This document shows, in pieces, positions 17,023-32,456 of a DNA stretch of 64,000 nt; position 1 is the stretch's first letter; each line of letters begins with the position of its first letter. This DNA comes from an uncultured Candidatus Saccharibacteria bacterium (GTDB taxonomy: Bacteria > Patescibacteriota > Minisyncoccia > Phycocordibacterales > UBA918). Under the pieces are notes generated by a model that worked only from the letters and a program-made list of their open reading frames with translations, was not told the DNA's origin and did no database searches. The stretch spans positions 179,558 to 243,557 of the forward strand of contig CAYOAM010000001.1 in the NCBI GenBank assembly GCA_964402035.1, read 5' to 3'. The translations under genes and the position numbers were made by a program.

Positions 17023-17039
17023 GTAATACTGTTTTTACT

Positions 17040-17230
17040 GGTGGACGCCAGAATGCCCCGATGCTTGCATCGGGGATGAATGCCGCCCCGATTCCGCGCC
17101 GCTCTAAGCGGCATGCGGATCGGAAGCGCGCCCGGTGGGCGCACACATCCAGCTAAACACCACGGTAGTTTTCCGCTAATACCACGTCAGCTCTGCTGCG
17201 GGGATCGACGGAAAACTTATTTTTACTTAG
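17040..17230 (+). other. GC-rich structured non-coding element (several perfect hairpins) between tgt and the rhs gene; function unknown
   Basis: Local GC is well above the window background. Hairpins ccccgatgc-ttg-catcgggg, gccgct-cta-agcggc and gcgccc-ggt-gggcgc. The overlapping ORFs (16920-17144 minus, 17080-17298 plus) look spurious. Confidence 0.3.
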
Positions 17231-17294
17231 CAGTGGCACAACTTTCTTTACTTCATATAAATAGTATATATACTGATACTATTACCCTCGACAT

Positions 17295-20200
17295 ATGAAT
17301 GGTAGTAGACAATGGTGTGTATCTATCGGACAGAGTTTTAATTCAGTGTATAGAAAAACCGTGAGCATCCTGCTCGCGGTTTTTTTGTTACTCGAACCGC
17401 TCACCCCACTCTTTGCGGCAGAAGAGGTGCCACAAACAACCGACGCTCCCGCAACCACTAGTGCTCCTGTTGATACAACGCCCGTCATCACAGTACCAAG
17501 AGGTACAGAACCACCACCAGAAACCAATACTTCACAGACAGAAGACGGCGTGGAATTTAGTGTTGATGGAAAAACACCAGAGATAAAACCTCCACCAAAA
17601 GTGGAACAACCATCCGAAGATACGAAAAAGCTCGAAGAGGTAGAGCCGGAAACAGAGTCTCTCATGGGGATGGGTGGAGCAACTCAAGGTAGTGATCGTG
17701 GTCAAGTACGCCTTAGCTCAAAGATCAATGAACAGGACGGCGCATTTACGTACGACTACCCCCTTATGGTGCCTCCAGGAAGAAATGGGAGAGAACCCAG
17801 CTTAGTTCTTTCATACAATAGCAGAGGGGGAGGCGATGATGATATCTTTGGATACGGCTGGAGTATCAACATCCCTTTTATCGAGCGGGTCAACAAGGTT
17901 GGCAGCGAACAGATATTCACCCAGAGTGTTTTTTATTCCTCCCTCGGAGGTGAACTCGTACAAATAGGAAGCACGACGCAGTATCGTCCCAAAGTAGAAA
18001 CAGGAGAATTTCTAAAATATGTCTTTGCAAATGACCTCTGGAAGATCACCGATAAAAGCGGTACAGTCTACACCTTTGGGTCCACCACCTCTTCGCGCGA
18101 GGATAATGCTGCAAGTTCAACTCAGATTGCGAAATGGATGCTCGACGAGGTACGTGATACGAATGACAACTATGTAAAGTACACGTACTACAAGGCAGAC
18201 AATCGCGCGTATCCTGCGACAATCGTGTATACAGGCAGTGGGGCGACAGATGGCCCATTTTCTATTTCTTTTGTGCGTAGTACGACTACCAGCAATTCTC
18301 CCCGGTACGAAAGCGGTTTTGCCGCTACAACCACGTACCGTATTTCAGAAATTAACACTGCGGTAAGTGGCAGTTGGGTGAGAAAATATGCGCTCGCGTA
18401 TGGGGTAGGGGACAACAGTGTGCGCACACTTCTTTCAGGTATCACTGAGAGTGCACGCACCGAAGGTAGTACAGCATCAACTACCATGCCGGCAACTACG
18501 TTTACATACGAAAACACGATGAGTCAGACATGGACCGCTTCTTCATGGGCGCTTCCAGAGCCATTTACACAAAATGGCATCGACATGGGTACGCGCGATG
18601 TGGATATAAACGGTGACGGCTTTCCTGACATCATTCGTTTTTATAGAGATGCGACAGGGACTACGATCAAACGAGTGTATCTTAACAACAAGGTTGACGG
18701 CTGGACCTTGCAGAGTTCATGGGACTGGACCTACTTCACCGTACCATTTTCAGAATATTATGCAGTGGGTGACAGCAATGCGCGGAATGACAATGGTGTA
18801 CGTTTTGCGGATGTGAATGGAGACGCCTTAACTGACGTGCTCATTGGTTATGATGGAAATGGCTCGAGTGACACACAAAAAATCTATATCAACTATGGCG
18901 CCGGATGGTCGTACGATTCTTCATGGGTACTGCCTGTGTACTTCACTCGTTACTATAGCTCGCGAGTGTGGGACAACGGTGTGCGCATCGCAGATATAAA
19001 TGGTGACGGTCTTCCCGATTTAGTTTCTGCACAGTGGAATGCGTCAAGTACGCTCTCAACAGTTTTTTTGAATACCGGGAGTGGTTGGAGCACGACCACT
19101 TCATGGGTTATGCCGCGTGCATTTACTGGAGCATATGATGGTGTCCACCAAGGCAAAGACCTTGGTACACAACTAGTCGATGTGAACGGAGATGGACTTA
19201 CTGACGTGGTGCATGGGCTCAAGAGTACAATATTTGGTAACTCAAAAAATACGTATCTCAATACCGGAAGTGGTTGGGCAACAAGTACGCTATGGGACCT
19301 CCCAGACTATCTCATCTGGGCAGACGAAGCGGTGTCCGATATAGGATATCGATTTGAGGACGTCAATGGCGATGGACTTGTAGATCTTTCTATCAATAAC
19401 ACATTCGGGGGTTCGATTCCGGATGATGATATCTATATTAATACGGGTGCTGGTTGGACCAATAGTATCGGTAATTTTCCACCCTACCAGTTTGTCACAA
19501 GTACAGGAGATACAGGGGCACGCTTTATGGATGTGAATGCCGACCGTTTACCAGACGAAGTGTACGGCAACACGTCAAGTTCGACAGGGCCCGTAAGTTC
19601 CGAAGAGACCTATTTGAATCGTCGTGAAGTCGGTGACCTTCTTATCAATGTCACCGAACCGAAAGGCGGGACACTTGCCATTACCTACCAAAGCTCACAT
19701 GAGTACAGGAGTGCTGGGAGCTCGACAAATCCCTCTCTCCCATTTCCGATCACCACTGTAGCCACTACGACAAAAGATGCTGGATTCGGCACCACCGAGA
19801 CACAAGCTTATCTCTATGAAGGTGGTGACTACTGGTTTGACGCCACTCTATTTCGTGATCGTAAGTTTGCTGGATTTAGTACCATGACAAAAACTGGTCC
19901 AACTCAGAAAGAGAGAATCTATTTTCACCAAGGGAATGAGACGAATGTCACATCTGGAGAATACGCCGATGACAGTACAAAAATTGGTTTCCCATACCGC
20001 AGTGAAGTGGCCGACCTTGCTAATCGTCCCTATAAAGTCTCAACAAGTGAGTGGGTGACAAGTGACCTTGGAAGTAGCGCTTCATTTGTGAAGGAGACAC
20101 AGACGATCGATCTTGCATACGATGGAGACAGTGACTACAAAGCGCGGGCGGTGACGTATGTATACGATGACACAAACGGTCTTCTCACTACCAAAACCGA

Positions 20201-23200
20201 ATGGGGTGAAGTGACACCTACTACAACAAACTCACAGGTGGTGAGTACTTCTTCTGCTTCTATCGACCTTGAGAGTGGAAGTAGCCAACTCTTAGGTATC
20301 ACTGATGCCGCACAGTCAACACTCGATATCTTGGGAAGTATGACTATTGAGGCGTGGGTGCGCCCCGAGAGCCAACCGAGTGTTGGTGGTATTAGCGTTA
20401 TCGCCTCAAAGTGGAGTGCAAGTGCTGACCAATCCTATGCTCTGTATTATGAAAATGATGCAGGAACAAAAAAGCTTGTCTTTCGTATGGATGACACAAC
20501 AACGAACCCATCAAAGATATGCTCGCTCTCGACTACCTTGAGTGACGCAACATGGTATCACGTGGCTGTCGCATATGACGCAGCAAATGCAAGTAGCACA
20601 CTCTATGTAAACGGTAGCAGTATTGGATATTGTACAGGTCTCTATACGAGCATACTCAATTCTACGACAGATTTCCGAGTAGGGGCGTGGCAGAATACTG
20701 CAACACATTTCTTTGATGGGCTTATCGACGAACTACGTGTCTGGAGCGGAGTTCGCACACAAGCACAGATCCAAGCATCGAAAGACGCAGAGCTTGCGGG
20801 AAACGAAAGTGGCCTCCAGGCGTATTGGCGCTTGAATAACTCTTCGCTCGATACCACAACAAACGACAATGATCTTACCCTCTATGGTGGGCCAGTCTAC
20901 AGTACTTCAACACCACTTGCGTCTGTGTACACCACAGCAGCGTCACGCTTTACCTTCACTGACGCGGGGGTCGATAAACGCACAACACAGTACACCTATG
21001 CCTCAAATACTGCGGCATACGTCACACTTCTTCAGAAAGAGACTCTGCTCGATAGGGCTTCAAGTACGATACGTGAAAACAGATTCTACTACGACACTCA
21101 GGCACTCGGCACGGTGACTGACGGAAATATGACGAAAGCAGAACGCCTCGTATCTGGTTCGTCTACATACATTGATGAAGAGTGGACGTACAACAGCTAC
21201 GGGCTTGTATCACAGAGCAAAGACCCACGCGATAAAGCAACGACCTATGTCTATGACTCATACAACCTCTATCCGGCGACGACTACCAACCCTGTCTCTC
21301 ACGTACTCCTTAAATCCTACGACTATTCAAGTGGTAAGGTTGCGACGACAACCGATCCAAACAGTCGTGTGTTCGTTACTGTATACGATGCATTTGATCG
21401 ACCTATTGAGGAGCAAATTCCTGATCCTGTATCAGGTTCGCCTGTCACAAAAGCAACATATAGTTATATCGACACAGCAGGGAGTAACCGTATAGCGACA
21501 ACACAAAATCTCAATAATAGTACATCGACAGAATCGTACGACTACTTCGACGGCTTTGGACGCAAGATCCAGTCGCGTGTAGAAAGTGAGGCATCAAACA
21601 CTTTTGCAGTTCGTGACTTTTATTACAACAGCAACGGACTCTTGGATCGTGAGTCGCTCCCATATTTTAACAACGGTTCCAGTCGCACAAGTTCCACAAC
21701 CGATGCAGAGCTGTATAGCATCTACACGTACGACCCTCTCGGCCGTATTGCCACCACGACGACTGCCGTAGGTACAACAGCAACTGTCTTTGACGACTGG
21801 ACGGAACGTGTCGTTGACGCGCTTGGCAACCCGAAAGGATTTGCGTATGACGCGTACGGAAGGCTCGCAACTACAACTGAATACAATGCCTCGACGACCT
21901 ACGCCACAGCCTACCTCTGGGACATGACCGATAAGCTTGCAACTATTACCGATGCCTTGGGCAACATCCGTGCGATCACGTACGACAAACTGGGGAGGAG
22001 GCTCACACTTCAGGATCTCCATGCTTCGGCGGACACCACATTTGGTACTTCAAGTTTTGCATACGATGCATCTGGAAATCTAGGAACGACCACTGATCCC
22101 AAGGGGCAAACGGTGGTACGTACGTACGATGACGTAAACCGCATCCTCACCGAAAACTACACAGGACTTGCGGGGACTGAGATCTCGTATACGTACGACA
22201 CCTGCACTAACGGCAAAGGTAAGCTGTGCCAGGCTATACGTGCAAGTTCTGCAACGACGACCTATGCGTACACACCACCGGGACTTCTGGATATCGCTAC
22301 CACGACCGTCGGTACGTCAACGTACACCGCAAATTACGACTACGATAGACAAGGCAACCAAACGCAGCTCACGTACCCAGACGCTTCGGTGGCAAGTTAT
22401 ACGTACAACACGGGAGGGCAACTCGAAAAGGTGCAGTACAAAGAGAGTGGGGGATCCTACTCTGATGTCGTGAGCGATTTCAACTATGGTCCCCACGGCA
22501 TGATCACCTACGAGCTCTACGGCAATGGTGTCTCGACAACAAAAGTCTACGACGAAGATCAGCTCTATAGACTTAAAACCATTATTACGGTCACCGCTAC
22601 AGGTACCGTGGGGTACGGAGGCGGGGGTGATGAGCTTCGCGAACTAGAAACCTCACTCACTCTTGGTACAGACGGCACACTTCTCTTTGCGGTAGAGGAA
22701 GAAATAGGTGCCATACCTGAAGAGGAGGCGATACTCGAAGAAGAAACTGCTACTCAAGAAGAGGTCCCAGATATAACACCACCACTTGATACGGAAGATG
22801 TGGGGGAGACTCTCGAAGAAGAGAGTCCTATAGGTACAAGTACAGACGACGGTGCAGTGGCAGCAACCTCTTCCACGCCAGAAACTGCGTTTTCTTCAAC
22901 TACAGAAGAAGTCGCTTCAAGCACACCTGAGGACACGTTCCTTGAGAGTACGAGTACCATTGATATGCTTCTCGTCGGGACGACCACAGCAACCACGACT
23001 GACCTTGCAACTTCCACGACACCAATACTCACCGGTATTATGGCACTTATCGAAGGGAAGACATATGAAGAGATTGCCCGTATAAAATCAGAAGAGATTG
23101 CAAAGATTGATATGCGCGGTCTCTATACAAAAGGAGATCTTGATATCGAGATACTCGATGTGGCACAGATAGATGGTGGCATACAAGTCTTTGCGCGCGC

Positions 23201-25586
23201 ATGGGAGAGTGGAGTACCTCTTGGTTTTGGGACGGAAGGTACGGTCGAGATCGAACGGTTTAGAATCTTTAATCCGCCCATTCTTGTGCCGGACAAAGAG
23301 GGGCTCGTGGTACGCACTTCAGTAAATCTTGACGGGGAAACAAAAGTACACACGTACAGAGAAGATCCTTTGGGAGCAGTACGTACGGTGATACAAGATA
23401 GTATAGAACGTGTAGGAAAACGCGGGACTCTTGTTGAAGTTTCCACAGTTGGCAACACCACCTCTATCTTCTATCCTGCTTCTGGTGCCACTTCGCCAGT
23501 TGACGGTCTTGCACGTCACTACCAGGCAACAAGTGACTGGAATACTGCACGTGACGCCACCGACGGTACTGCGGCTTCAGCAACGACTGGGGACGATCTT
23601 GCTGCAGCCTCACGCAAAGACTCTTCTGACCTCTATGGCATCTATCGTGGCTTTTTCCTTTTTGACACGGCGCCGATTACATCCGGTAACGAGGTCACAG
23701 CAGCAACACTTTCTCTCTATACCAACGCTGTTTCAAATGCTGACAATGACGGTGACGACTTTATCTCCATTGTTTCTACATCCACTCCCGCTTCAGATGC
23801 AAACATCACCACGGCTGACTACGACCAATGTGGCGCAACTGAAGCACATGATACGAGTGAGCGCAAAGACCTTACCGGTATGAGTGTGAGCGTATACAAA
23901 GACTGGTCGATGAATGCTACAGGTCGTAGCAGTATCAATGTCACCGGTATCTCAAAGTTCTGTGCGCGTGAAGGTCACGATCTTCTCGATACACCATACG
24001 CAGGGGGTCCCAATACCTCAAACTACTTCAACATCCTCTGGGCAGATACTGCAGGCACAACCCAAGATCCAACATTGACTGTGACCCACACCCCACTCCC
24101 ATCTCCAACAGGAGGCAACACCATCCAATACCGCTCATACACCTATGACGCAGTGGGAAACATCACCCAGATTGTAGAAAGTGGAAACACACTCGCCCGC
24201 GCCACCACCACATACACATACGACCCCCTCTATCGCCTCGTGAGTGCTTCGACCACTCAGGCAAGTAGCACCCCATACTCCGAAACATACGCATACAACG
24301 CCATCGGTAACCTCACCTATAAGTCAAACGTAGGTACGTACTCATATGGAGGGAGTAGTGGCTCTTCATACGCTAACCCACACGCTCCCACAAGCATCAA
24401 TGGCGTCACCTACGCATATGACAAGAATGGCAACCTAGCCTCCACCACCGACTCCAAGACCTATACCTGGGACTATGCCAATAGGTTAAGTAGCACTGTC
24501 ATAGGCAGTCTCACCACCACATACCAGTACAACCACGAAGGTCAACGAGTATACAAAACCAATGCCTCAGGTACGATAGCCTCACCCTATACCTTCTACG
24601 AAACCGACTCAGGAACAACCACCAAGCACATCTATACCCCTAGTGGTGATCTTCTTAGTACCATCGACAAGAGGGGTAGCACCACCACACGCTCCTATGC
24701 CCACACAGATCACTTGGGATCAACGGTCGCTATCACAAGCAATACCGGAGCAGTGTCACAAGTACTTGAATACTATCCGTATGGAGGAACACGTATAGAC
24801 CAGAAGTATGGCGCTACGAACCAACGCAATAGATACATAGGACAAGACAGTGACATAGAGAACTCGCTTATCTACCTCAATGCACGGTATTATGATGGAC
24901 AGAGAGGGCAGTTCTTGAGTCAGGATCCGGTGTTTAATGAGGTCGGACTCACGAAAGACGGGAAAGCAGTGATGAGGAATCCTCAAGCGATGAACAGCTA
25001 CTCGTATGCACAGAATAATCCTGTGGTGTATAAAGATCCGAGTGGGAGGATAGCGTTTGTACCACTTGTTCTTGGAATTGTGATGGCTTATGGTTATGTA
25101 CAAACGGCTGTTGACGTGTATCACTTTACCAATGTTTTAAGATACCCAGAAGCGTTCACAACCTCTGAAATGAATGAAGCTGGAGTCAAAGTGATACACG
25201 ACGCAGCAGGAATAGGTGCAGGACGACTTCTGGGGCCGGATGTTGGCTCAGGGATTGACACATTTGGAGCGATATATGACACAGTTAACTACGGAGTGAA
25301 AAAAATTGATGATTTATTCAAAAAAGTAAAAAATCTTTCAGTAGACGGAGGTCAAAATATACACCAAACTACACCAGCAATAGGAAACATTCCAAAACCA
25401 CAAGATAATAAAACATATATTAGTGCACCACCATCTACTACTCAACCAATACCAACGGCACAAAACTCTTCTAACTACAATTCAGCTACGAGTTATCTAA
25501 ACTCAGCACAGCGAGCACTAAATCGAGGTGATTTAAAATCAGCCGAAAGATTTATTGGCAAAGCAAGGAGATCTTTAGGTAATTAA
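17295..25586 (+). CDS. rhs: Giant Rhs/YD-repeat polymorphic toxin (Tc-toxin BC-like): signal peptide, SpvB domain, FG-GAP/integrin-like repeats, LamG/ConA-like lectin domain, YD repeats, RHS core and variable C-terminal toxin domain
   Basis: SpvB-like block (GAFTYDYPLMVPPGRNGREPSLVLSYNSRGG..GYGWSINIPFIERV). Six DxNGDGxxD propeller repeats (DVDINGDGFPDII, ADVNGDALTDVL, ADINGDGLPDLV, VDVNGDGLTDVV, EDVNGDGLVDLS, MDVNADRLPDEV). LamG block (IEAWVRPESQ...LIDELRVWSGVRTQAQIQ). YD repeats (YTYDAVGNITQI and others). Core end HTDHLGSTVAITS..YYPYGGTR...NARYYDGQRGQFLSQDPVF, then a unique 215-aa C-terminal domain. Confidence 0.9.
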   Translation: MNGSRQWCVSIGQSFNSVYRKTVSILLAVFLLLEPLTPLFAAEEVPQTTDAPATTSAPVDTTPVITVPRGTEPPPETNTSQTEDGVEFSVDGKTPEIKPPPKVEQPSEDTKKLEEVEPETESLMGMGGATQGSDRGQVRLSSKINEQDGAFTYDYPLMVPPGRNGREPSLVLSYNSRGGGDDDIFGYGWSINIPFIERVNKVGSEQIFTQSVFYSSLGGELVQIGSTTQYRPKVETGEFLKYVFANDLWKITDKSGTVYTFGSTTSSREDNAASSTQIAKWMLDEVRDTNDNYVKYTYYKADNRAYPATIVYTGSGATDGPFSISFVRSTTTSNSPRYESGFAATTTYRISEINTAVSGSWVRKYALAYGVGDNSVRTLLSGITESARTEGSTASTTMPATTFTYENTMSQTWTASSWALPEPFTQNGIDMGTRDVDINGDGFPDIIRFYRDATGTTIKRVYLNNKVDGWTLQSSWDWTYFTVPFSEYYAVGDSNARNDNGVRFADVNGDALTDVLIGYDGNGSSDTQKIYINYGAGWSYDSSWVLPVYFTRYYSSRVWDNGVRIADINGDGLPDLVSAQWNASSTLSTVFLNTGSGWSTTTSWVMPRAFTGAYDGVHQGKDLGTQLVDVNGDGLTDVVHGLKSTIFGNSKNTYLNTGSGWATSTLWDLPDYLIWADEAVSDIGYRFEDVNGDGLVDLSINNTFGGSIPDDDIYINTGAGWTNSIGNFPPYQFVTSTGDTGARFMDVNADRLPDEVYGNTSSSTGPVSSEETYLNRREVGDLLINVTEPKGGTLAITYQSSHEYRSAGSSTNPSLPFPITTVATTTKDAGFGTTETQAYLYEGGDYWFDATLFRDRKFAGFSTMTKTGPTQKERIYFHQGNETNVTSGEYADDSTKIGFPYRSEVADLANRPYKVSTSEWVTSDLGSSASFVKETQTIDLAYDGDSDYKARAVTYVYDDTNGLLTTKTEWGEVTPTTTNSQVVSTSSASIDLESGSSQLLGITDAAQSTLDILGSMTIEAWVRPESQPSVGGISVIASKWSASADQSYALYYENDAGTKKLVFRMDDTTTNPSKICSLSTTLSDATWYHVAVAYDAANASSTLYVNGSSIGYCTGLYTSILNSTTDFRVGAWQNTATHFFDGLIDELRVWSGVRTQAQIQASKDAELAGNESGLQAYWRLNNSSLDTTTNDNDLTLYGGPVYSTSTPLASVYTTAASRFTFTDAGVDKRTTQYTYASNTAAYVTLLQKETLLDRASSTIRENRFYYDTQALGTVTDGNMTKAERLVSGSSTYIDEEWTYNSYGLVSQSKDPRDKATTYVYDSYNLYPATTTNPVSHVLLKSYDYSSGKVATTTDPNSRVFVTVYDAFDRPIEEQIPDPVSGSPVTKATYSYIDTAGSNRIATTQNLNNSTSTESYDYFDGFGRKIQSRVESEASNTFAVRDFYYNSNGLLDRESLPYFNNGSSRTSSTTDAELYSIYTYDPLGRIATTTTAVGTTATVFDDWTERVVDALGNPKGFAYDAYGRLATTTEYNASTTYATAYLWDMTDKLATITDALGNIRAITYDKLGRRLTLQDLHASADTTFGTSSFAYDASGNLGTTTDPKGQTVVRTYDDVNRILTENYTGLAGTEISYTYDTCTNGKGKLCQAIRASSATTTYAYTPPGLLDIATTTVGTSTYTANYDYDRQGNQTQLTYPDASVASYTYNTGGQLEKVQYKESGGSYSDVVSDFNYGPHGMITYELYGNGVSTTKVYDEDQLYRLKTIITVTATGTVGYGGGGDELRELETSLTLGTDGTLLFAVEEEIGAIPEEEAILEEETATQEEVPDITPPLDTEDVGETLEEESPIGTSTDDGAVAATSSTPETAFSSTTEEVASSTPEDTFLESTSTIDMLLVGTTTATTTDLATSTTPILTGIMALIEGKTYEEIARIKSEEIAKIDMRGLYTKGDLDIEILDVAQIDGGIQVFARAWESGVPLGFGTEGTVEIERFRIFNPPILVPDKEGLVVRTSVNLDGETKVHTYREDPLGAVRTVIQDSIERVGKRGTLVEVSTVGNTTSIFYPASGATSPVDGLARHYQATSDWNTARDATDGTAASATTGDDLAAASRKDSSDLYGIYRGFFLFDTAPITSGNEVTAATLSLYTNAVSNADNDGDDFISIVSTSTPASDANITTADYDQCGATEAHDTSERKDLTGMSVSVYKDWSMNATGRSSINVTGISKFCAREGHDLLDTPYAGGPNTSNYFNILWADTAGTTQDPTLTVTHTPLPSPTGGNTIQYRSYTYDAVGNITQIVESGNTLARATTTYTYDPLYRLVSASTTQASSTPYSETYAYNAIGNLTYKSNVGTYSYGGSSGSSYANPHAPTSINGVTYAYDKNGNLASTTDSKTYTWDYANRLSSTVIGSLTTTYQYNHEGQRVYKTNASGTIASPYTFYETDSGTTTKHIYTPSGDLLSTIDKRGSTTTRSYAHTDHLGSTVAITSNTGAVSQVLEYYPYGGTRIDQKYGATNQRNRYIGQDSDIENSLIYLNARYYDGQRGQFLSQDPVFNEVGLTKDGKAVMRNPQAMNSYSYAQNNPVVYKDPSGRIAFVPLVLGIVMAYGYVQTAVDVYHFTNVLRYPEAFTTSEMNEAGVKVIHDAAGIGAGRLLGPDVGSGIDTFGAIYDTVNYGVKKIDDLFKKVKNLSVDGGQNIHQTTPAIGNIPKPQDNKTYISAPPSTTQPIPTAQNSSNYNSATSYLNSAQRALNRGDLKSAERFIGKARRSLGN

Positions 25587-25591
25587 GTAGT

Positions 25592-25852
25592 ATGAAATTA
25601 CAAGATTTAATTATTAATAATTATGAAATACTCCTTCTCGTCGCAGGATTGTTACTCACATTTCTTGGAATTATGCCTATAATCTCAAGAAATTACTATG
25701 AAAACAATTTAAGATCAGATTGGAGTAGAAACCTCTGGCTATTTTCAGAGAAAGACAGATATATATATAATAGATATGTTAGACCACTTTATCCATTGTT
25801 GGCTGGTATTACTATGATTGGTGTAGCAATCTATAAGTTTTTATATCCTTAA
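25592..25852 (+). CDS. Candidate immunity protein for the Rhs C-terminal toxin (86 aa, 2 TM helices)
   Basis: Starts 6 nt after the rhs stop. AT-rich, two hydrophobic helices (LLLVAGLLLTFLGIMPII and LLAGITMIGVAIYKFLY). Confidence 0.45.
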   Translation: MKLQDLIINNYEILLLVAGLLLTFLGIMPIISRNYYENNLRSDWSRNLWLFSEKDRYIYNRYVRPLYPLLAGITMIGVAIYKFLYP

Positions 25853-25857
25853 TACGT

Positions 25858-27021
25858 GTGACCATCTCCTCCAAAACATACACCTGGGACTATGCCAACA
25901 GACTCAGTAGCACCGTCATAGGATCCTTAAGTACCTCATACCTCTATAACCACGAAGGTCAACGAGTATACAAAACCAATGCTTCAGGTACGATAGCTTC
26001 ACCGTATACCTTCTATGAGACAGACTCAAGTACCACCACCAAGCACATCTATACCCCCAGTGGTGATCTTCTTAGTACCATCGACAAGAGGGGTAGCACC
26101 ACCACACGCTCCTATGCCCACACAGATCACTTGGGATCAACGGTCGCTATCACAAGCAATACCGGAGCAGTGTCACAAGTACTTGAATACTATCCGTATG
26201 GAGGAACACGTATAGACCAGAAGTATGGCGCTACGAACCAACGCAATAGATACATAGGACAAGACAGTGACATAGAGAACTCGCTTATCTACCTCAATGC
26301 ACGGTATTATGATGGACAGAGAGGGCAGTTCCTTTCACAGGATCCGGTGTTTCTTGGGGATGCAGAAGCTCAGGACTTGAAATATCCTCAGAATCTAAAT
26401 AGTTATTCATACTGGACGAACAATCCTATTATTAATAAAGATCCAAGCGGAAAAGCGACATACGTTGATGTTAACGGGAAAAGAATTATAGGTTCAGACA
26501 CAAATGACCCGAATACCTACTATGAGCAAGATGACATCAATATGCTCAACACAAATGCCAACCAAATGGAAAACAACAAGCTCAATGCTGTGGAGTTCTA
26601 TAATAAAGTTAACTATGGTGGTGAATGGGACTACAAAGAAGGAGGGAGGGAGTATTATTTCTTTGAAGGGGAACTGGTCGATAAGGAAACCTATGGGAAT
26701 CGTCATTATGGCTATACGGGCAGCGCAGGAGCTTTCCCGGGCGTTGTATTGAAGGCGGGTGCAGGGGCCGCTTCAGTACGACATAATAAGGGGTTTGTTA
26801 AAAATTCTTCAATGTATCTTGATGAGCAAAAAGATACCAGAAACATTCAGATGGGTATTGATGCATATCAAAGTAAAAATAGCAAAAACACAGTCAGCCT
26901 TTCTACAAAACTAAAGAATGCTAATACATCGCTCAATTATGCCCTTGAACAAGCCAAAAAAGGGAACACATATGCTGCCACTCGAGCTATAAAGAGAGCT
27001 TTCAATCAATTGAACAATTGA
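25858..27021 (+). CDS. Orphan rhs-CT cassette 2: duplicated Rhs core 3' end (about 160 aa) fused to a distinct C-terminal toxin domain; GTG start only
   Basis: Nt 26041-26333 are more than 99% identical to 24623-24915 of the main rhs gene, with divergence starting exactly after QDPVF. No ATG start is present. Confidence 0.7.
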   Translation: MTISSKTYTWDYANRLSSTVIGSLSTSYLYNHEGQRVYKTNASGTIASPYTFYETDSSTTTKHIYTPSGDLLSTIDKRGSTTTRSYAHTDHLGSTVAITSNTGAVSQVLEYYPYGGTRIDQKYGATNQRNRYIGQDSDIENSLIYLNARYYDGQRGQFLSQDPVFLGDAEAQDLKYPQNLNSYSYWTNNPIINKDPSGKATYVDVNGKRIIGSDTNDPNTYYEQDDINMLNTNANQMENNKLNAVEFYNKVNYGGEWDYKEGGREYYFFEGELVDKETYGNRHYGYTGSAGAFPGVVLKAGAGAASVRHNKGFVKNSSMYLDEQKDTRNIQMGIDAYQSKNSKNTVSLSTKLKNANTSLNYALEQAKKGNTYAATRAIKRAFNQLNN

Positions 27022-27028
27022 ATTTAAG

Positions 27029-27700
27029 ATGAAAATTATACATAAAATTGCAAGCCGTATCCGACATCATTACGTTTTGTCAGCATTGTTGGTTAATTTG
27101 ATTCTCAGTATTCTACTGACTTGTATTTTACTTTTCGGTATACGTCTAACTCATGTGCTTTACCAAGCAGCCCTGTTAAATTTTGTTTTCTTGGAGTGCT
27201 TTATAAATTTTGTATTTATCACTTGGTATTTGTTTGGACGTGTATCAAAAATACTAAAATCAGGGCTTCTTTCGCTCATTATCCAATCCCTTAAATATGC
27301 TCTCTTATTTTTTATTGGGATTTGGAGTTTCTTTTTTATTTTTCTTTCACTCGTAGATTTTCATCGCCTCCTTAAGGATGGATATGACGGAAGTTACCTG
27401 CCCGTCCAAACTGTTACTATTGATGAAAATCAGAATATAGTCGTCTATCGAACAAACGGAGGTGCCACAACAGATTTTGGCGTTGAGATTCGAAGAGAGA
27501 AATACTTATCCCTTGGATTCAAATGGGTTAAAACACTTAGAGAGTATTATCATGTGAGCGATATTAAACTAAGTACTTTAAATACTTCTCAGGTCATGAT
27601 AGAAGAGGTAAAAGGTACCAGCCATGTGTATACCTCAAGCGAGGAAAAATGGTACGGCCCTCTCCCCGTGAGAGGTGAGGTAATTGATATTTTTCGTTGA
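27029..27700 (+). CDS. Candidate immunity protein for orphan CT2 (223 aa, multi-TM N-terminal half)
   Basis: Starts 8 nt after the CT2 stop. 5-6 TM helices in the first 110 aa, then a soluble domain. Confidence 0.45.
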   Translation: MKIIHKIASRIRHHYVLSALLVNLILSILLTCILLFGIRLTHVLYQAALLNFVFLECFINFVFITWYLFGRVSKILKSGLLSLIIQSLKYALLFFIGIWSFFFIFLSLVDFHRLLKDGYDGSYLPVQTVTIDENQNIVVYRTNGGATTDFGVEIRREKYLSLGFKWVKTLREYYHVSDIKLSTLNTSQVMIEEVKGTSHVYTSSEEKWYGPLPVRGEVIDIFR

Positions 27701-27737
27701 AACTAGACTAGAAACGGTAGAATGTAGAGAAATGGTG

Positions 27738-27756
27738 GAAATGGGGACAGGTACTT
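27738..27756. repeat. Degenerate REP-like copy (ggaaatggggacaggtac)
   Basis: Shares the ggaaatggggacagg core with the REP arrays flanking the RAYT gene. Confidence 0.4.
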
Positions 27757-28073
27757 TTTTAAAGAGACACAAGCGAGTGTTTCTTAGCAATAATATTTTT
27801 TGTAAAATCTGCTCAAATAGCCTAGCAAGCTAACCCATCGACAAGAAAGGCAGCACTACCACGAGATCCTATGCCCACACAGATCACTTAGGAAGTACGG
27901 TCGCTATCACCTCAAACACTGGAGCAGTCTCTCAAATACTTGAATACTACCCATATGGAGGTACCCGTATAGACCAGAAGTATGGAGCTACAAACCAACG
28001 CAATAGGTACGTTGGGCAGGACTATGACCAAGAAACGAATCTCAATTACCTGCAACAGAGATATCAAAATTCA

Positions 28074-28754
28074 GTGAATGGGCAGTTTATTTCTCAAGAC
28101 CCGGTGTTCCTAGACATAGGACTTAATACCAACGAGGGGAAGGTAGTGATGAGGAATCCGCAAGCAATGAACTCGTATAGTTATGCACAAAATAGTCCTT
28201 TGGTATTGAAAGATCCGAGTGGAAGGAGCGCTGCAGCCATAGGAGGCTTAGAAGGCCTAGCTGCGTTATCCGCACTTGTTGCTCCGGAAGTTGTTGTTCC
28301 GGTAGTGGCAGCAGTTGCAATTGTTACGACGGGGATTGTATTATATGAAAACGGAAAGCAGATTTGGATGGGACCAGTCCAAACTATCAATTTACCCCCA
28401 CCACCGATAGATCCTCTTGACCCGGGAGGTCCACCAAATTTCAAAGGACCAAAGTGGAAACAAGCAATTATTTGGACGACTATCGGAATTGGTGGTTTAG
28501 AGGGGGTACTTGAAAACTATCCAAAGGGAGGCAATTCGAATTCTACTAAACAATCAAACACTACAAATTCAACCAACTCAACTGCCAAATCTCCAACTTA
28601 TAATCAACCTTCTCCATACCAAAATAATCATCCCACTAATAATGACGCGGCATACAGTTTAATAAAGCAAGCTGAAAAAGCCATTGCTAATAAGGATTAT
28701 GGTGCTGCAAAAAAATACCTAAAGAACGCATCGAAAGCCTTAAATGGGAAGTAA
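28074..28754 (+). CDS. Orphan rhs-CT cassette 3 (start-less): an in-frame Rhs-core remnant begins at 27837 immediately after a TAA stop; third distinct C-terminal toxin domain
   Basis: Frame is open from 27837 (IDKKGSTTTRSYAHTDHLGSTVAITSNTGAVSQILEYYPYGGTRIDQ...QDPVFLD), about 80% nt identity to the main core. Only a GTG at 28074 is available as a start. The C-terminal domain is Gly/Pro/Asn-rich with a hydrophobic helix. Confidence 0.55.
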   Translation: MNGQFISQDPVFLDIGLNTNEGKVVMRNPQAMNSYSYAQNSPLVLKDPSGRSAAAIGGLEGLAALSALVAPEVVVPVVAAVAIVTTGIVLYENGKQIWMGPVQTINLPPPPIDPLDPGGPPNFKGPKWKQAIIWTTIGIGGLEGVLENYPKGGNSNSTKQSNTTNSTNSTAKSPTYNQPSPYQNNHPTNNDAAYSLIKQAEKAIANKDYGAAKKYLKNASKALNGK

Positions 28755-28803
28755 AATGTTTCTAAAAAAGCTCAGTAATAAATTAAACTTTAGGTAATAA
28801 TAT

Positions 28804-29067
28804 ATGGCTATATTCATGTTTTTCTTTTGGATCTCGCTGACCTTAATTTGTCTGTTTCTATCCAGAAAATATAAAGGGGGGCATTATAGAGAAGCATCAT
28901 ATTTTACAAGTGCAGCCTTACTATTTTATGTGTTTAAATATTTTGTTAATAACACAACTATTTTCTCACCCGAAACACTATCTCTTATTGAAAAAATAAA
29001 TTTTATATTTTGGATTATATGGGCGTCTTTATTTTTATATTTTGTGATAAAAAAGAAAATTTGGTAG
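28804..29067 (+). CDS. Small membrane protein (87 aa), immunity candidate
   Basis: Very AT-rich. 2-3 TM helices. Confidence 0.4.
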   Translation: MAIFMFFFWISLTLICLFLSRKYKGGHYREASYFTSAALLFYVFKYFVNNTTIFSPETLSLIEKINFIFWIIWASLFLYFVIKKKIW

Positions 29068-29111
29068 TTATCCATTTTTAATAAAGGACCATACAGGATA
29101 ATCTAAAAAGT

Positions 29112-29387
29112 ATGTCCGTACCCCTTGTATCTTTGCTTGCCTATCCAGTTCTTATCTTATTTGGAATTTATTACTGGAAAAAATATAACGATCCTTCAAT
29201 TCCTTGGTATTTGTTTCCCGTAATAGGACTTTTAGTATTGACCGTATCTCAATGGTTTTTAGGTACGAATTTTAACTTAAGTGAGGATGATCAAGCAATT
29301 GAATTTTTAATATTTACTGCTCTTAGGGTCTTAATGGGAGGGACACTTTTAATTGTATTCTTAATAAATTTTTTCAAGAAGAAATGA
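29112..29387 (+). CDS. Small membrane protein (91 aa), immunity candidate
   Basis: AT-rich. 3 TM helices. Ends in KKK. Confidence 0.4.
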   Translation: MSVPLVSLLAYPVLILFGIYYWKKYNDPSIPWYLFPVIGLLVLTVSQWFLGTNFNLSEDDQAIEFLIFTALRVLMGGTLLIVFLINFFKKK

Positions 29388-29405
29388 TTTTCGAAATCTT
29401 AAACC

Positions 29406-29768
29406 CTAGTTAATTTTAGTTTTAATTTGAAAAGTAATTTTGTCCATCTCTACATTTGATTGAGAATCGTGACTAGCCCTTAATCTTATTGGTACTGAAC
29501 CAGTGAGGATCACCTTGCCGTGGTCATAGCTGATGCTTTCTACAAAATCTATAAGGAACTTCCTTTTTGCTTTAAGGTCGATACTCCTTTCAAATCTTGC
29601 TCGTGTAGTCTCACAAAATATCCTTAAGTTCGCATCGATTATATCCTCATCGTGCAGGGTGGGTATTTGTTTGAGAAGTTCCTTTAAATCAAGGAAATGG
29701 ATCAGAAATGGGGACAGGGACAATACTTTAAACAAAGGAAATGGGGACAGGGACAATACTTTAAACAA
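29406..29768 (-). CDS. Hypothetical ORF whose N-terminal 30 codons are encoded by the REP repeats; probably a disrupted gene remnant
   Basis: The N-terminus MFKVLSLSPFPLFKVLSLSPF is the translation of the tandem REP units. No internal ATG except near the C-terminus. Confidence 0.2.
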   Translation of the reverse strand: MFKVLSLSPFPLFKVLSLSPFLIHFLDLKELLKQIPTLHDEDIIDANLRIFCETTRARFERSIDLKAKRKFLIDFVESISYDHGKVILTGSVPIRLRASHDSQSNVEMDKITFQIKTKIN

Positions 29769-29770
29769 AA
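29691..29770. repeat. Left REP-like array: 2.3 tandem copies of ggaaatggggacagggacaatactttaaacaaa (33-nt period)
   Basis: Seen directly. Inverted relative to the array at 30480-30554. Confidence 0.8.
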
Positions 29771-29788
29771 GTATTGCATAATATTGTC

Positions 29789-30457
29789 ATGCCTCGCCAA
29801 GCACGTGTTGCGGTGAAAGATGTGGTGTACCATGTCATCAATCGTTCCAATGGTCGAGCGAGGATATTCGAGAAAGACAGTGACTATCAGCATTTTGAGT
29901 CACCGCTCACCGAAGCCCGGGAACTAACAGATATGCGTATCCTTGCATACTGTATTATGCCCAACCATTGGCATCTTATACTCCATCCACGTTCAGACAC
30001 CAACCTTGCTGAATTTATGAGTTGGCTCACCACGACTCATGTCCGCCAGTATCGCACTCGCACGCAAAGTATTGGCTATGGTCACCTCTATCAAGATCGA
30101 TACAAATCATTTCCCGTTGAGACCAATGACTATTGCGCAACACTGATCCGCTACATTGAACAGAACCCATTGCGCGCTCGACTCATTCAAAGAGCCGAAG
30201 ACTGGCAATGGTCAAGTCTCTGGAGACGAGAGCAGGGAAGCGATGCACAGAAGAGGCTGCTTGCGGAGTTACCCACTGACCTTCCTGCAAACTATCTGCA
30301 GTCTGTGAATGAGATACTTAAACCTAAAATAATAGAAAATATTCGTTACTCGGTGAACAAAGGAAAACCATATGGCTCAGAAAGGTGGGTGAGTACCATG
30401 GTGGGTGACTTTGCATTAAGGTATACGCTTCGTGGTCCAGGTCGTCCGAAGAAATAG
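29789..30457 (+). CDS. REP-associated tyrosine transposase (RAYT, IS200/Y1 HUH family)
   Basis: HUH motif HWHLILH and catalytic Tyr region (YIEQNPLRARL..EDWQWSS). Aligns by eye with the E. coli RAYT YafM pattern. Maximal ORF from TTG 29774. Confidence 0.85.
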   Translation: MPRQARVAVKDVVYHVINRSNGRARIFEKDSDYQHFESPLTEARELTDMRILAYCIMPNHWHLILHPRSDTNLAEFMSWLTTTHVRQYRTRTQSIGYGHLYQDRYKSFPVETNDYCATLIRYIEQNPLRARLIQRAEDWQWSSLWRREQGSDAQKRLLAELPTDLPANYLQSVNEILKPKIIENIRYSVNKGKPYGSERWVSTMVGDFALRYTLRGPGRPKK

Positions 30458-31010
30458 AAAATATTACACAATGAAAAGTGGAAAAATATTGTCCCTGTCC
30501 CCAATTTCCTGGAAAAATATTGTCCCTGTCCCCAATTTCCTCCCCAATTTCCTGAATCCAGTAGGTTCACTGATTGATTCCGTTACGGCTGCAAAAGATA
30601 AACTGGTGGAATTCCAAAACAGCAGTGACCCAGAGCGAGATGCCATGCTTGCTGATGGAATTATCACTTTTGCAGAGATGGTCGTGTTGCGAAATCGTGG
30701 GAATGTGGGGGATGACGTTATTAGAGAGACTCTTAGCGGAAGTGGGGACATTCGAAGAGTACACAGATTGTCATCAACTGATGCACTCACAACAGGTGAA
30801 CAATTCCTCGGTCCTGGTTATAAACAACTAGGTAAGCCAAATTCAGGTGTGTTTAGAAGCGCTGATGGACTGAGGCAATTTAAGATTGATGGGGGATCAC
30901 TTATCCATCCACAAGGAGCACACGTCAGTTTTGAAGCGTTTAATGTAAGTCAGTCTACTAACCCGTATGCAGAACCGTATGTAAACAATCACGTCTTTTT
31001 AACAAATTAA
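30432..31010 (+). CDS. Putative orphan toxin C-terminal domain (5' part overlaps the RAYT 3' end and REP array; the real module probably starts near 30556)
   Basis: Location in the cassette array with a small gene immediately 3'. No recognisable Rhs core upstream, consistent with displacement by the REPIN-RAYT insertion. Domain family not recognised. Confidence 0.3.
   Translation: MVQVVRRNRKYYTMKSGKILSLSPISWKNIVPVPNFLPNFLNPVGSLIDSVTAAKDKLVEFQNSSDPERDAMLADGIITFAEMVVLRNRGNVGDDVIRETLSGSGDIRRVHRLSSTDALTTGEQFLGPGYKQLGKPNSGVFRSADGLRQFKIDGGSLIHPQGAHVSFEAFNVSQSTNPYAEPYVNNHVFLTN
30480..30554. repeat. Right REP-like array: 2.4 tandem copies of ggaaaaatattgtccctgtccccaatttcc (reverse complement of the left units)
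   Basis: Seen directly. Together with 29691-29770 it forms inverted REP doublets around the RAYT gene (REPIN-like). Confidence 0.8.
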
Positions 31011-31013
31011 AAT

Positions 31014-31331
31014 ATGCAAGAAATTTACTTTAACAGAATAGGCATCCTGCGAAAAAGTATACATCCAAAAGAAATTGGTTGGTATATTACGATTCAAGAT
31101 GATACTCAAATCAGTGGAGGGTGCAAAGTTTTTACTTCAAATAATATTGATTTTGAGTCTGATGCAAGTGACGCAGCAAAAATTGTCTTTGATCATTGGT
31201 ATGAAACAGAACTTCACGTATCTAAAGGCATTGAAGCATGGGGTCGAGAGATTGAGTGGACTAACAATTATATCACCATTGAGTGGGCAGATGATATGAA
31301 ATCATGGAAGTGGAAGAAAATGGATAAATAG
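31014..31331 (+). CDS. Candidate immunity protein (105 aa, soluble, Trp-rich)
   Basis: Starts 4 nt after the preceding stop. No TM helices. Confidence 0.35.
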   Translation: MQEIYFNRIGILRKSIHPKEIGWYITIQDDTQISGGCKVFTSNNIDFESDASDAAKIVFDHWYETELHVSKGIEAWGREIEWTNNYITIEWADDMKSWKWKKMDK

Positions 31332-31359
31332 TAATGTAAATAAGGTATCAACTACCTTT

Positions 31360-31533
31360 ATGCCCAAAACTTCAGTAGCCCCATACTCCAAAACATACAC
31401 CTGGGACTATGCAAATAGACTCACAGGTACCACCATAGGCTCTCTCAGTACCACCTATCAATACAACCACGAAGGTCAGCGTGTATACAAAACCAATGCC
31501 TCAGGCACCACGACGATATACATATTAGTATAA
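31360..31533 (+). pseudogene. Truncated Rhs core remnant (57 codons, MPKTSVAPYSKTYTWDYANRLTGTTIGSLSTTYQYNHEGQRVYKTNASG...)
   Basis: Homologous to main-gene region 24440-24570 (SKTYTWDYANRLSSTVIGSLTTTYQYNHEGQRVYKTNASG). Ends in a stop after 8 unrelated codons. Confidence 0.5.
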
Positions 31534-31591
31534 ATTCTATATGAAACGGTTTCTGGAATGAATCGGAAAATAGTGACTGTCCTCAATTTCA

Positions 31592-31619
31592 CTTTTTTGC
31601 GAGGTATAGAGTGAAATAA
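31592..31619. repeat. 28-bp direct repeat copy 2 (identical to 16995-17022); right boundary of the Rhs island
   Basis: Seen directly. Perfect match to the tgt 3' end. Confidence 0.8.
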
Positions 31620-31652
31620 AAAATACCGATTTTGCCAGTGTGGCAGAATCGG
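31612..31652 (-). terminator. Rho-independent terminator for the minus-strand gene 31679-32023
   Basis: Hairpin ccgattttgcca / tggcagaatcgg followed on the minus strand by a TATTTTTTATTT tract. Confidence 0.5.
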
Positions 31653-31678
31653 CATTTGAGCGATACACCGTCATGTGG

Positions 31679-32023
31679 TCATGGAATCAGTCTTTCGGCA
31701 CATACCTTTGCGGTCGCGCCGCTATATTTGTCGGCGATCGGAAGTCCAACCTTAAGCCATTTCTCCACCTCGGCTGGGCGTTGCCAGTTTGATACTGTTT
31801 TGAGGCTCTGCAACACAATCTCGACATCGGGTCGTTTCTTGAATTGAACAACGCAGATGGCGCCTAAGGCGTCAGCGACTGCTGCGTTCGCTGCTGTCTG
31901 TGCCGAGTCTCTGGCTGTTCCGCTAGTAACCCAGCCGCCCCACCAGAAGCCGACGATAGTTGCAGCAATTACCCCTGCGACCGCACCCTTTACTGCATAC
32001 CAAAACTTGTCAGGAATCTTCAT
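31679..32023 (-). CDS. Small membrane-anchored hypothetical protein (114 aa)
   Basis: TM helix (VAGVIAATIVGFWWGGWV). Terminator downstream. Confidence 0.5.
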   Translation of the reverse strand: MKIPDKFWYAVKGAVAGVIAATIVGFWWGGWVTSGTARDSAQTAANAAVADALGAICVVQFKKRPDVEIVLQSLKTVSNWQRPAEVEKWLKVGLPIADKYSGATAKVCAERLIP

Positions 32024-32110
32024 GATGTATTCCTTTCATTCGTTCGTAGAGAAGGGGATCTGCTCTGCCGTATCTATAAGAACAGTAGCATACAATCGGA
32101 TTCTCAGATA

Positions 32111-32145
32111 CAAAATAAAAATAGCCGATACTCGAAGGTATCGGC
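32111..32145 (-). terminator. Rho-independent terminator on the minus strand (gccgatac-tcgaag-gtatcggc plus TATTTTTATTTTG)
   Basis: Seen directly. Terminates a minus-strand transcript coming from the GC-rich region 32146-32395. Confidence 0.6.
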
Positions 32146-32395
32146 AGAAAATCGTAAGCTGTTGGAGGGGCGACTAGGACAGTGGACGTCACACAGCCTA
32201 ATCTTTATATTTGAGTATGGGGCATTTCGTAGCGCAGGGAGGTGCGGAGCACCCCCGAGGGAGGAGAGCCTTTCAGCTCCCGGCTCAGGTTTATCCGTCC
32301 TGCGTGAACATGTACCGCCACCAACTCCTGGAGTCTTGGCACCCTCACAGGTGACAAGCCTGCCACCTCACTTTCGCAAGGAACAGCTAAAAACA
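32146..32395 (-). ncRNA. Candidate structured ncRNA (about 250-285 nt), possibly a reduced RNase P RNA (rnpB)
   Basis: GC-rich island with no credible ORF. Putative promoter TTGACT-N16-TATGCT at about 32432-32404 on the minus strand. Terminal helix agcuguu / aacagcu (P1-like). Segments GAAAGU, GGGUGCCAAG...CCAGGAG and CUGAAAGGCUC resemble conserved RNase P RNA blocks. Intrinsic terminator at the 3' end. Confidence 0.3.
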
Positions 32396-32456
32396 AGCAT
32401 ATACCATAGAGTTAGAAAGTCAATAAAATAAAATATTTGCTATACTCTGTGAGCAT

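Follow-up and report, generated by a model that had tools for sequence, protein, structure and literature searches.

Organization of the rhs island

We analyzed a 64,000-nucleotide (nt) stretch of DNA (the window; contig CAYOAM010000001.1 of assembly GCA_964402035.1, positions 179,558 to 243,557), which carries a full-length rhs gene followed by a row of toxin cassettes in the same orientation. The window belongs to a 453-kb contig (NODE_5) of the ENA assembly ERZ3430527. An earlier annotation made from the letters alone (the sequence-only reading) had proposed displaced rhs-CT/immunity cassettes (CT, C-terminal toxin region) behind a full-length rhs gene. This was borne out by matches to the Rhs-associated core family TIGR03696 in the main gene and in both of the following stubs, by an Ntox44 tip, and by toxin/immunity pairs that co-occur elsewhere. 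The island, the main gene, and the first two orphan cassettes comprise the following features (aa, amino acids; TM, transmembrane segments):

17023–32456, plus strand: rhs island of 15.4 kb, between tgt (end 17022) and uvrB (start 32457)
17295–25586, plus strand: main rhs gene, full-length, 2763 aa
24444–24914, plus strand: main-gene copy of the core stub common with orphan 1; 24618–24914 is the near-identity tract
24915–25049, plus strand: linker from QDPVF to the Rhs core end NSYSYAQNNPVVYKDPSGR, a predicted autoproteolysis motif; the TIGR03696 match ends at aa 2584
25050–25586, plus strand: main C-terminal toxin, 178 aa; hydrophobic N-terminus, low-complexity spacer, helical tail
25592–25852, plus strand: putative main immunity gene, 86 aa, 2 TM (hydropathy), ATG start
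25861–26454, plus strand: orphan 1 core stub and linker, ending in KDPSGK; the frame opens at 25837
26455–27021, plus strand: orphan 1 toxin, Ntox44 domain and helical tail
27029–27700, plus strand: putative orphan 1 immunity gene, 223 aa; TM-rich N-terminal half and soluble domain
27834–28226, plus strand: orphan 2 truncated core stub and linker, ending in KDPSGR; homology from 27835
28227–28754, plus strand: orphan 2 toxin; hydrophobic, then low-complexity spacer and helical tail
28804–29067 and 29112–29387, plus strand: candidate orphan 2 immunity genes, 87 and 91 aa, ATG starts, 2–3 TM each

The main protein is composed, in order, of an N-terminal hydrophobic signal-like segment, SpvB, FG-GAP, Laminin_G_3, RHS/YD repeats, the Rhs-associated core, and the C-terminal toxin. 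Pfam matches were obtained for SpvB (E = 3e-17), Laminin_G_3 (1e-24), RHS_repeat (5.6e-13), and FG-GAP_3, together with TIGR01643 YD_repeat (1.6e-7) and a precomputed match to TEN_YD-shell. TIGR03696 covered aa 2493–2584 at 56.8 bits (cut-off of 32.5) and ended at YKDPSGR; the same family was matched in the stubs of orphan 1 (58.9 bits, 5e-16) and orphan 2 (54.4 bits, 1e-14). We take the KDPSG[R/K] end of the core domain to be the canonical DPxG boundary of Rhs/TcC proteins, a predicted autoproteolysis site. The core/toxin junction had previously been placed at QDPVF, and this placement was abandoned. QDPVF lies inside the core domain, in its RYYD..G.F.S.DP part, approximately 44 residues upstream of KDPSGR, and the TIGR03696 match runs on over these residues to KDPSG[R/K] (approximately 25049, 26454, and 28226 in the main gene, orphan 1, and orphan 2).

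A separate feature of the main protein is an acidic, S/T-rich low-complexity stretch followed by approximately 400 aa without a domain match (aa ~1780–2270; 22600–24100), after which the YD repeats resume. This shell-region insert may be an inserted domain in the cocoon.

The three tips are unrelated in sequence, in agreement with the earlier statement that the third module carries a distinct C-terminal domain. Orphan 1 encodes an Ntox44 domain (Pfam PF15607; 44.8 bits with a cut-off of 24) at aa 247–338 of its open reading frame (ORF), covering profile positions 2–103 of 104, and its tip homologues P0002–P0004 are ORFs consisting of a stub and Ntox44. The main toxin shows one hydrophobic segment, and orphan 2 shows one long hydrophobic segment (hydropathy) and no Pfam family above cut-off. 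Pfam at E ≤ 1 yielded nothing credible for the small ORFs or for the toxins of the main gene, orphan 2, and orphan 3. Homologues of the main tip (P0131–P0138), found in a whole-library HMMER search, follow Rhs stubs or linkers in other metagenomes. The hallmark of an orphan module, a core stub joined to a distinct toxin, was found in orphans 1 and 2, while orphan 3 has no stub and the fourth stub has no toxin.

Small ORFs with ATG starts follow the toxin fragments at distances of 5–50 nt. As previously noted, they are often membrane-like: the 86-, 87-, and 91-aa products and the N-terminal half of the 223-aa product are membrane-like, and the 105-aa product is soluble (hydropathy). The pairing of toxin and immunity gene is supported by family co-occurrence in two other loci, and neutralization is predicted. 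In the unrelated locus L173, a homologue of the main immunity gene (43% identity, E = 6e-20) is the next gene after a main-CT homologue, and a homologue of the orphan 1 immunity gene (36% identity, E = 4e-16) follows an Ntox44 module in L092. In L173, the main-tip module has a truncated stub and stands behind small non-rhs ORFs; thus, the tip that is main in the window is orphan-like there.

Support from independent assemblies

Repeats of 297 nt that are nearly identical are well known to cause mis-assembly, with short-read graphs breaking there, so the array could in principle reflect repeats collapsed or duplicated by the assembler in a genome that has a single tip. Contigs from ERZ3430525, ERZ3430528, and Logan SRR7369912 tiled 23780–31566 at 99.5–100% identity and crossed every cassette junction. 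Three of them (L005, L006, and L007) spanned the main CT, its immunity gene, and the start of the orphan 1 stub; L002 and L003 spanned the orphan 1 CT, its immunity gene, and orphan 2 with its small ORFs; and L009 and L010 extended from the orphan 2 ORFs across the transposase and orphan 3 to stub 4. The two small membrane ORFs of orphan 2 were also present in the independent assemblies. The Logan contigs start exactly 30 nt inside both repeat ends (24885 and 26302), which is the behavior of a k-mer graph at a genuine repeat. Moreover, three tips unrelated in sequence cannot be copies of one another. With four independent assemblies in agreement, those of three other samples crossing all junctions, the repeats are not assembly duplications, the outcome that had been named as fatal to the earlier proposal, and an assembly artefact is effectively refuted.

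Probable sequence exchange between the main gene and orphan 1

The homology between the main gene and orphan 1 starts at 24444 and 25861, respectively, the latter position lying 9 nt after the stop codon of the preceding immunity gene, and the two copies are offset by 1417 nt rather than 1418. Identity is 82% over 24444–24617 and then rises sharply, with a single mismatch (at 24641) in the 297 nt of 24618–24914 against 26035–26331. The sequence-only reading had reported more than 99% identity between 24623–24915 and 26041–26333; the near-identity was confirmed, but the second range was 1 nt off, such that the literal comparison matched at 55 of 293 positions and the comparison shifted by 1 nt at 291 of 293. 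The length and identity of the repeat exclude an origin by chance.

The near-identity tract stops at 24914, where the two copies switch to different codons for the same Leu-Ser pair (TTGAGT versus CTTTCA). No base differs across QDPVF (24921–24935), and from 24936 onward the sequences are unrelated in type. The claim that identity ends exactly at QDPVF was therefore correct to within approximately 20 nt but not to the nucleotide. As the main gene and orphan 1 diverge upstream of KDPSG, the exchanged unit for orphan 1 would comprise the linker, the cleavage motif, and the toxin. Of the two orphan linkers, that of orphan 2 matches the main linker at 74% of nt, whereas that of orphan 1 is of an unrelated type.

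Orphan 2 is more distant. Its frame opens at 27834, immediately after an in-frame TAA (27831–27833), as had been described, and it matches the main gene at 296 of 389 nt through the linker to KDPSGR, with a ratio of nonsynonymous to synonymous substitution rates (dN/dS) of ~0.18 and a dS of ~1.0. The previous figure of approximately 80% for this stub holds for the protein (80%) and not for the DNA (76%). Near-identical core stubs had been described across the array; this description fits orphan 1, but not the orphan 2 stub (76% in nt) or stub 4 (81–82%).

The synonymous divergence of the repeat is a mosaic, with a dS of 0.015 in the 297-nt tract and 0.82 in the adjoining 24444–24617. Such a mosaic is unexpected from one duplication or integration and points to subsequent gene conversion involving the main gene and orphan 1; the signature of recent conversion in the identity tract is thus supported indirectly. 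In the divergent parts of the stubs, a dS of 0.8–1.0 was accompanied by a dN/dS of 0.1–0.2, from which it follows that these parts diverged as working rhs genes rather than as decaying copies. They evolved under protein-level selection within rhs genes of different lineages.

Variation in the population was found at the same place. A contig of a sibling sample (L005, from ERZ3430525) differed from the window at 11 sites in 2310 nt, and all of these lie in 24641–24764. Ten of the 11 variants fall within 51 nt (24714–24764), and all 10 are synonymous. The divergence of this patch (19.6%) resembles that of the stub where it is unconverted. The possibility of an assembly chimera with orphan 2 was rejected: seven of the 10 variant bases are common with orphan 2, but the other differences of orphan 2 in the same 51 nt are missing from the patch, and three variants are its own. 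Nor is the patch a simple copy of orphan 2. The patch is most likely a surviving pre-conversion sequence or the product of a second conversion event. Whichever its origin, the population is heterogeneous exactly where recombination is predicted.

Start codons and expression of the orphans

The sequence-only reading had stated that no orphan module has an ATG start, which proved true of orphans 1 and 2 but not of the terminal stub, which begins with ATG. A start-codon scan of the orphan 1 stub retrieved no ATG and only one GTG (25858). In orphan 2, the first GTG is at 28074 and the first ATG at 28149, and the stub before the linker has no ATG. No signal peptide was found on orphan 1 or 2. Upstream of the confident genes of the whole window (~30 genes), no Shine–Dalgarno-like motif was found; the upstream sequences are A/T-rich and the starts are ATG. 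An absent ribosome-binding site says nothing about the silence of the orphans, because real genes here also have no Shine–Dalgarno motifs. Promoter-like sites in 24000–32500 numbered 16, compared with 20 ± 4.3 in shuffled sequence, and terminators were likewise not above the shuffled level. The orphan toxins are most likely silent, because they have no ATG starts, export parts, or shell parts of their own.

Proposed function and alternative explanations

We consider it very probable that the locus is a polymorphic Rhs toxin island in a genome of the Paceibacteria (Patescibacteria, candidate phyla radiation (CPR)), consisting of a full-length weapon and reserve cassettes. The expressed weapon would be the main protein, with its signal-like N-terminus, TcB/SpvB-like region, Rhs shell, and toxin tip after KDPSGR. 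The reserve array, all in the orientation of the main gene, would comprise orphan 1, orphan 2, the orphan 3 pair, and the decayed terminal stub. Each orphan immunity gene has an ATG start of its own, and expression of these genes could offer standing protection (PMC3150448). The stubs would serve as direct repeats for recombination with the 3' end of the main gene: a crossover between 24444–24914 and 25861–26331 would delete 1417 bp, comprising the main toxin and its immunity gene, and the Ntox44 tip would then be joined to the shell, so that the delivered toxin would be switched. Non-reciprocal exchange (gene conversion) would keep the repeats of the main gene and orphan 1 similar. We infer toxicity, immunity, autoproteolysis at KDPSG, and switching from the sequences.

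Several points weigh against this interpretation. Among the cassettes, orphan 1 alone is a good substrate for recombination, since identity over the 390 nt of the orphan 2 stub is 76%, no stub precedes the orphan 3 toxin, and no toxin follows stub 4. Loss of the main immunity gene would leave a recombinant sensitive to its siblings unless the locus was duplicated first, as in Salmonella. Neither a recombinant junction (main core joined to the orphan 1 CT) nor a circular cassette junction was found among the contigs, and no full-length Rhs protein with the tip of orphan 1 or 2 was found among the homologues, which are nearly all ORFs of 250–650 aa. The toxin and immunity activities of the cassettes are predicted, and translation of the orphans could in principle be initiated at GTG 25858, GTG 28074, or ATG 28149.

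A different account of the same array is that the orphans are relics of past tip replacement, kept for their immunity genes, and that the toxin fragments are never redeployed, an idea raised for orphan cdiI genes (PMC3150448). The state of the distal cassettes fits this account, in that the stub of orphan 3 has been lost, an in-frame stop interrupts the decayed stub 4, and the orphan 2 stub is truncated and 76% identical; furthermore, the downstream small ORFs all have clean ATG starts and the toxin fragments have none. However, the frames of orphans 1 and 2 are intact through complete toxin domains (188 and ~175 aa), the stubs are under purifying selection (dN/dS of 0.1–0.2), and the main gene evidently continues to exchange sequence with orphan 1, judging from the 297-nt conversion tract and the polymorphism within it. 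We therefore regard a pure archive of immunity genes as somewhat unlikely, although it is the alternative we take most seriously. Less probable still is that the ORFs of stub and CT are translated alone from internal starts and act like toxin–antitoxin pairs inside the producer cell. Salmonella rhs orphans offer a precedent, in which internal promoters and a CTG start yield a low level of orphan toxin (PMC7043789). Gene callers predict ORFs of 387 and 226 aa at the orphans, weak starts are possible in a genome that does not rely on Shine–Dalgarno sites, and hundreds of related stub-CT ORFs of 250–650 aa occur in metagenomes. On the other hand, all confident genes examined in the window start with ATG, a codon absent from the orphan 1 stub; promoter-like sites are no commoner than in shuffled sequence; and many of the short database ORFs either belong to tandem arrays that follow long rhs genes or come from short contigs. 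Expression within the producer was thus judged improbable, and the island of one weapon with reserve cassettes was retained as the preferred explanation.

Comparison with known systems

Orphan toxin/immunity arrays and tip switching are well documented in the Rhs and contact-dependent growth inhibition (CDI) systems of Proteobacteria. The layout in the window is that of known orphan rhs-CT/rhsI arrays, in a lineage that is unusual for it. In the locus of Salmonella Typhimurium LT2, a full-length rhs gene is likewise followed by a fragment in the same orientation with a partial core, a different toxin, and its own immunity gene. The LT2 orphan has no initiation and export signals; orphans 1 and 2 here have no signal peptide and no ATG in the stub before the linker, although GTGs are present at 25858 and 28074. 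Recombination between main gene and orphan is supported in LT2 by a 522-bp repeat at 95% identity, and prior duplication preserves the immunity gene that is otherwise lost (Koskiniemi et al. 2014; PMC3967940). The repeat in the window is 471 bp long and includes the 297-nt tract at 99.7%. LT2 has one orphan and switching was demonstrated, whereas the window has several and switching is inferred. The host here is a CPR bacterium, and the protein has a signal-like and SpvB/TcB-like N-terminus in place of the PAAR/VgrG-linked LT2 type. In addition, the homology to orphan 1 breaks approximately 44 aa upstream of the DPxG motif, such that the linker and motif would be swapped with the toxin.

Orphan rhs-CT/rhsI modules were defined in a study that described arrays of Dickeya, Yersinia, and E. 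coli EC93 and EC869 (Poole et al. 2011; PMC3150448). Those arrays, whose tip/immunity pairs lack initiation signals, resemble the present one in the tandem order of the pairs, in a conserved peptide motif that demarcates the tips, and in modules common to several species. The window differs from them in that orphan 1 and stub 4 begin at one core position, in that only 9 nt separate the orphan 1 stub from the stop of the immunity gene before it, and in that one module is disrupted by a Y1 transposase element. For one Saccharibacteria genome, an Rhs-like toxin with an immunity gene was mentioned in passing (PMC6031116). A limited literature search retrieved no description of orphan rhs arrays in Patescibacteria.

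Tc-toxin TcB–TcC cocoons and Gram-positive Rhs proteins of the WapA type combine SpvB, FG-GAP, and an RHS/YD shell with a DPxG aspartyl-protease motif that releases the encapsulated toxin. The main protein shares the SpvB, FG-GAP, RHS/YD shell, and DPxG end, and has an N-terminal signal-like segment instead of an adaptor for a type VI secretion system (T6SS). It differs in its extra Laminin_G_3 domain and long shell-region insert, and neither a TcA-like translocator nor a cell-wall anchor was found in the window.

The array lies in a Paceibacteria (CPR) genome of less than 1 Mb, and it suggests that even extremely reduced, probably epibiotic bacteria spend approximately 15 kb on a diversifiable contact weapon. 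The array is complete, is inserted between two housekeeping genes, and bears traces of ongoing gene conversion, and related arrays occur in many environmental contigs. The locus is thus a concrete place to seek recombinant subpopulations in existing metagenomes.

Transposase element, orphan 3, and terminal stub

The distal part of the array comprises the following features, of which the stub-less toxin/immunity pair (30549–31331) behind a RAYT-like transposase (RAYT, REP-associated tyrosine transposase; REP, repetitive extragenic palindromic) is an array element additional to those described by the sequence-only reading:

27738–27751, plus strand: degenerate solo REP-like repeat; the truncated orphan 2 stub lies 83 nt downstream
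29705–30541, plus strand: Y1 transposase element, IS200-like/RAYT-like, with the transposase at 29774–30457
30549–31010, plus strand: orphan 3 toxin domain, stub-less; conserved FLGPGY...GVFRSADGLRQF...HVSFE...NNH
31014–31331, plus strand: putative orphan 3 immunity gene, 105 aa, soluble; assigned by position only, ATG 4 nt after the toxin stop
31360–31575, plus strand: terminal decayed core stub, ATG start, in-frame TAA at 31531

The transposase matched Pfam Y1_Tnp (1.6e-19; 70.6 bits with a cut-off of 23). It is flanked on each side by two 32-nt repeats in inverted orientation (29705–29769 and 30479–30541; sequence GGAAATGGGGACAGGGACAATAC...). The 14-mer GAAATGGGGACAGG occurred three times in the window, with 0.03 occurrences expected, and beyond the flanks of the transposase only one further, degenerate repeat copy (27738) was found in the 64 kb. 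A REPtron is a RAYT flanked by inverted REPs, and the element resembles one in its single Y1_Tnp/HUH transposase bracketed by inverted short repeats with a solo repeat copy nearby. It departs from a REPtron in scoring 70.1 bits with the NCBIfam model REP_Tyr_transpos, below the cut-off of 80, in having one extra degenerate copy in 64 kb, and in repeat units that are not obviously palindromic. From the position of the solo copy, the transposase element may also have shaped the boundary of the truncated orphan 2 stub. Between the small ORFs of orphan 2 and the left repeats, a minus-strand ORF fragment (29406–29700) reads into the repeats; the ORF (29406–29768) had no Pfam match at E ≤ 1 and may be a remnant of a gene truncated by the transposon.

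The homologues of the orphan 3 toxin (P0127 and P0129) have N-terminal PT-HINT/Hint domains, and because these domains precede them, the orphan 3 domain is taken as a polymorphic-toxin tip. No Rhs stub was found upstream of this tip, which therefore represents an orphan whose stub is missing at the transposon site. Its AlphaFold model had a mean predicted local distance difference test (pLDDT) score of 78, with the core above 90; a Foldseek search returned no significant match in the PDB, the best being 5t86_A (a chain of a CdiA-CT complex; E = 0.13) together with weak RNase Sa matches. The 105-aa immunity ORF had no family match in Pfam (E ≤ 1).

The fourth core stub, reported earlier at 31360–31533, exists and is 81–82% identical in nt to 24451–24574 and 25869–25991. 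After the ATG and approximately eight unrelated codons, its homology starts at the core position of orphan 1. The stub is regarded as decayed because weaker homology (tblastn) runs past its TAA to ~31575.

Genomic setting

The genes neighboring the island are housekeeping genes. UvrB (32457–34499) was 69–75% identical to UvrB of Candidatus Kaiserbacteria, Paceibacteria, and other metagenome-assembled genomes (MAGs) of Patescibacteria, and it was used to retrieve 80 GTDB genomes for comparison. In the closest relatives among them, the Candidatus Kaiserbacteria/Paceibacteria genomes, tgt is directly upstream of uvrB with a gap of 50–850 nt, the flanking gene order is that of the window, and an rhs stub was found at none of the 80 uvrB loci. 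The 15.4-kb tgt–uvrB segment is therefore a lineage-specific island. A scan of GTDB with the stub patterns RSYAHTDH and Q[VI]LEYYPY, which are too lineage-specific for this purpose, retrieved no relatives. The GC content drops from 0.49 in the core to 0.39–0.44 in the CTs and 0.28–0.36 in the immunity genes, which is the usual compositional signature of imported tips.

No secretion system was found among the genes of the window, nor any T6SS gene in its 64 kb, and no further rhs-like sequence was found in the window outside the island. Rfam searches (the whole window at gathering scores and 31400–32500 at E ≤ 1) returned only tRNA-Ala at 45103 and one chance-level match. The segment from the decayed terminal stub to uvrB (31534–32456) has a genome-like GC content of 0.48 and may or may not be part of the island. 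It contains a membrane-like minus-strand ORF of 114 aa (31679–32023), for which no homologue was found in the tgt–uvrB gap of the relatives, no Pfam match at E ≤ 1, and no Rfam match in 31400–32500 at E ≤ 1.

Related loci, cassette boundaries, and post-toxin tails

The search with orphan 1 retrieved 228 homologues, nearly all of which are ORFs of 250–650 aa consisting of a stub and a tip. In a Patescibacteria MAG (L091), three orphan modules lie behind a 2701-aa SpvB/RHS gene; their tips are one Ntox44 and two of the HExxH type, and one or two small ORFs come after each module. L092 carries four modules. Tandem same-strand stubs (2–6) were found in nine of the 25 related metagenomic loci of at least 8 kb. 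Within an array, the stubs have a common 5' boundary, and this boundary differs between arrays. The largest array among the related loci was L164 (metagenome contig Ga0209515_10001184, 1378–12392), with six tandem same-strand Rhs stubs and different tips within 11 kb; four of the six stubs begin at the same core position and two within approximately 20 residues of it.

Each cassette may be a fixed unit (stub, toxin, and immunity gene) that joins or leaves the array in circular form through a single crossover at the stub. This suggestion is made because stub 4 starts at the core position where orphan 1 also begins, the orphan 1 stub starts 9 nt after the immunity stop, and the stubs of other arrays have one 5' boundary per array.

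The tips of the three stub-bearing genes end alike, in an N/S/T/Q/P-rich spacer and a helix-hairpin tail of approximately 30 aa (25480–25583, 26925–27018, and 28650–28751) with the pattern A..A...G[DN]...A...I..A...L. Compared with shuffled sequences, the tails were similar between the main gene and orphan 1 (z = 4.2) and between the main gene and orphan 2 (z = 5.5), and not significantly so between orphans 1 and 2. A role of the tails as a 3' recombination arm was rejected, as they have no similarity at the DNA level. The main-toxin family occurs with three tail types, namely the hairpin, 'LWTTPSGAVVTW', and a Q-rich coiled coil, and many related tips end in an amphipathic helix with basic residues (KK), in LWTTPxGAxVxW, or in a CxGxC motif; tails beyond the window were observed in P0131–P0138, L092, and L117. 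In CPR-type Rhs tips, the short post-toxin tail may thus be a separate module shuffled independently of the toxin domain, which hints at a function connected with the delivery machinery or the target and not with the toxin itself. Such a module would be new, if true. Taken jointly, cassettes that move as circles and a separately shuffled tail form a speculative proposal that we consider doubtful at present.

Two shell-less mini proteins were observed among the database proteins (P0074 of 592 aa and P0136 of 405 aa), in which a signal peptide, with or without approximately 190 aa of SpvB, is joined directly to the last ~150–200 aa of the Rhs core and a tip. Such proteins could have arisen by recombinational deletion, or they could represent a separate secreted form.

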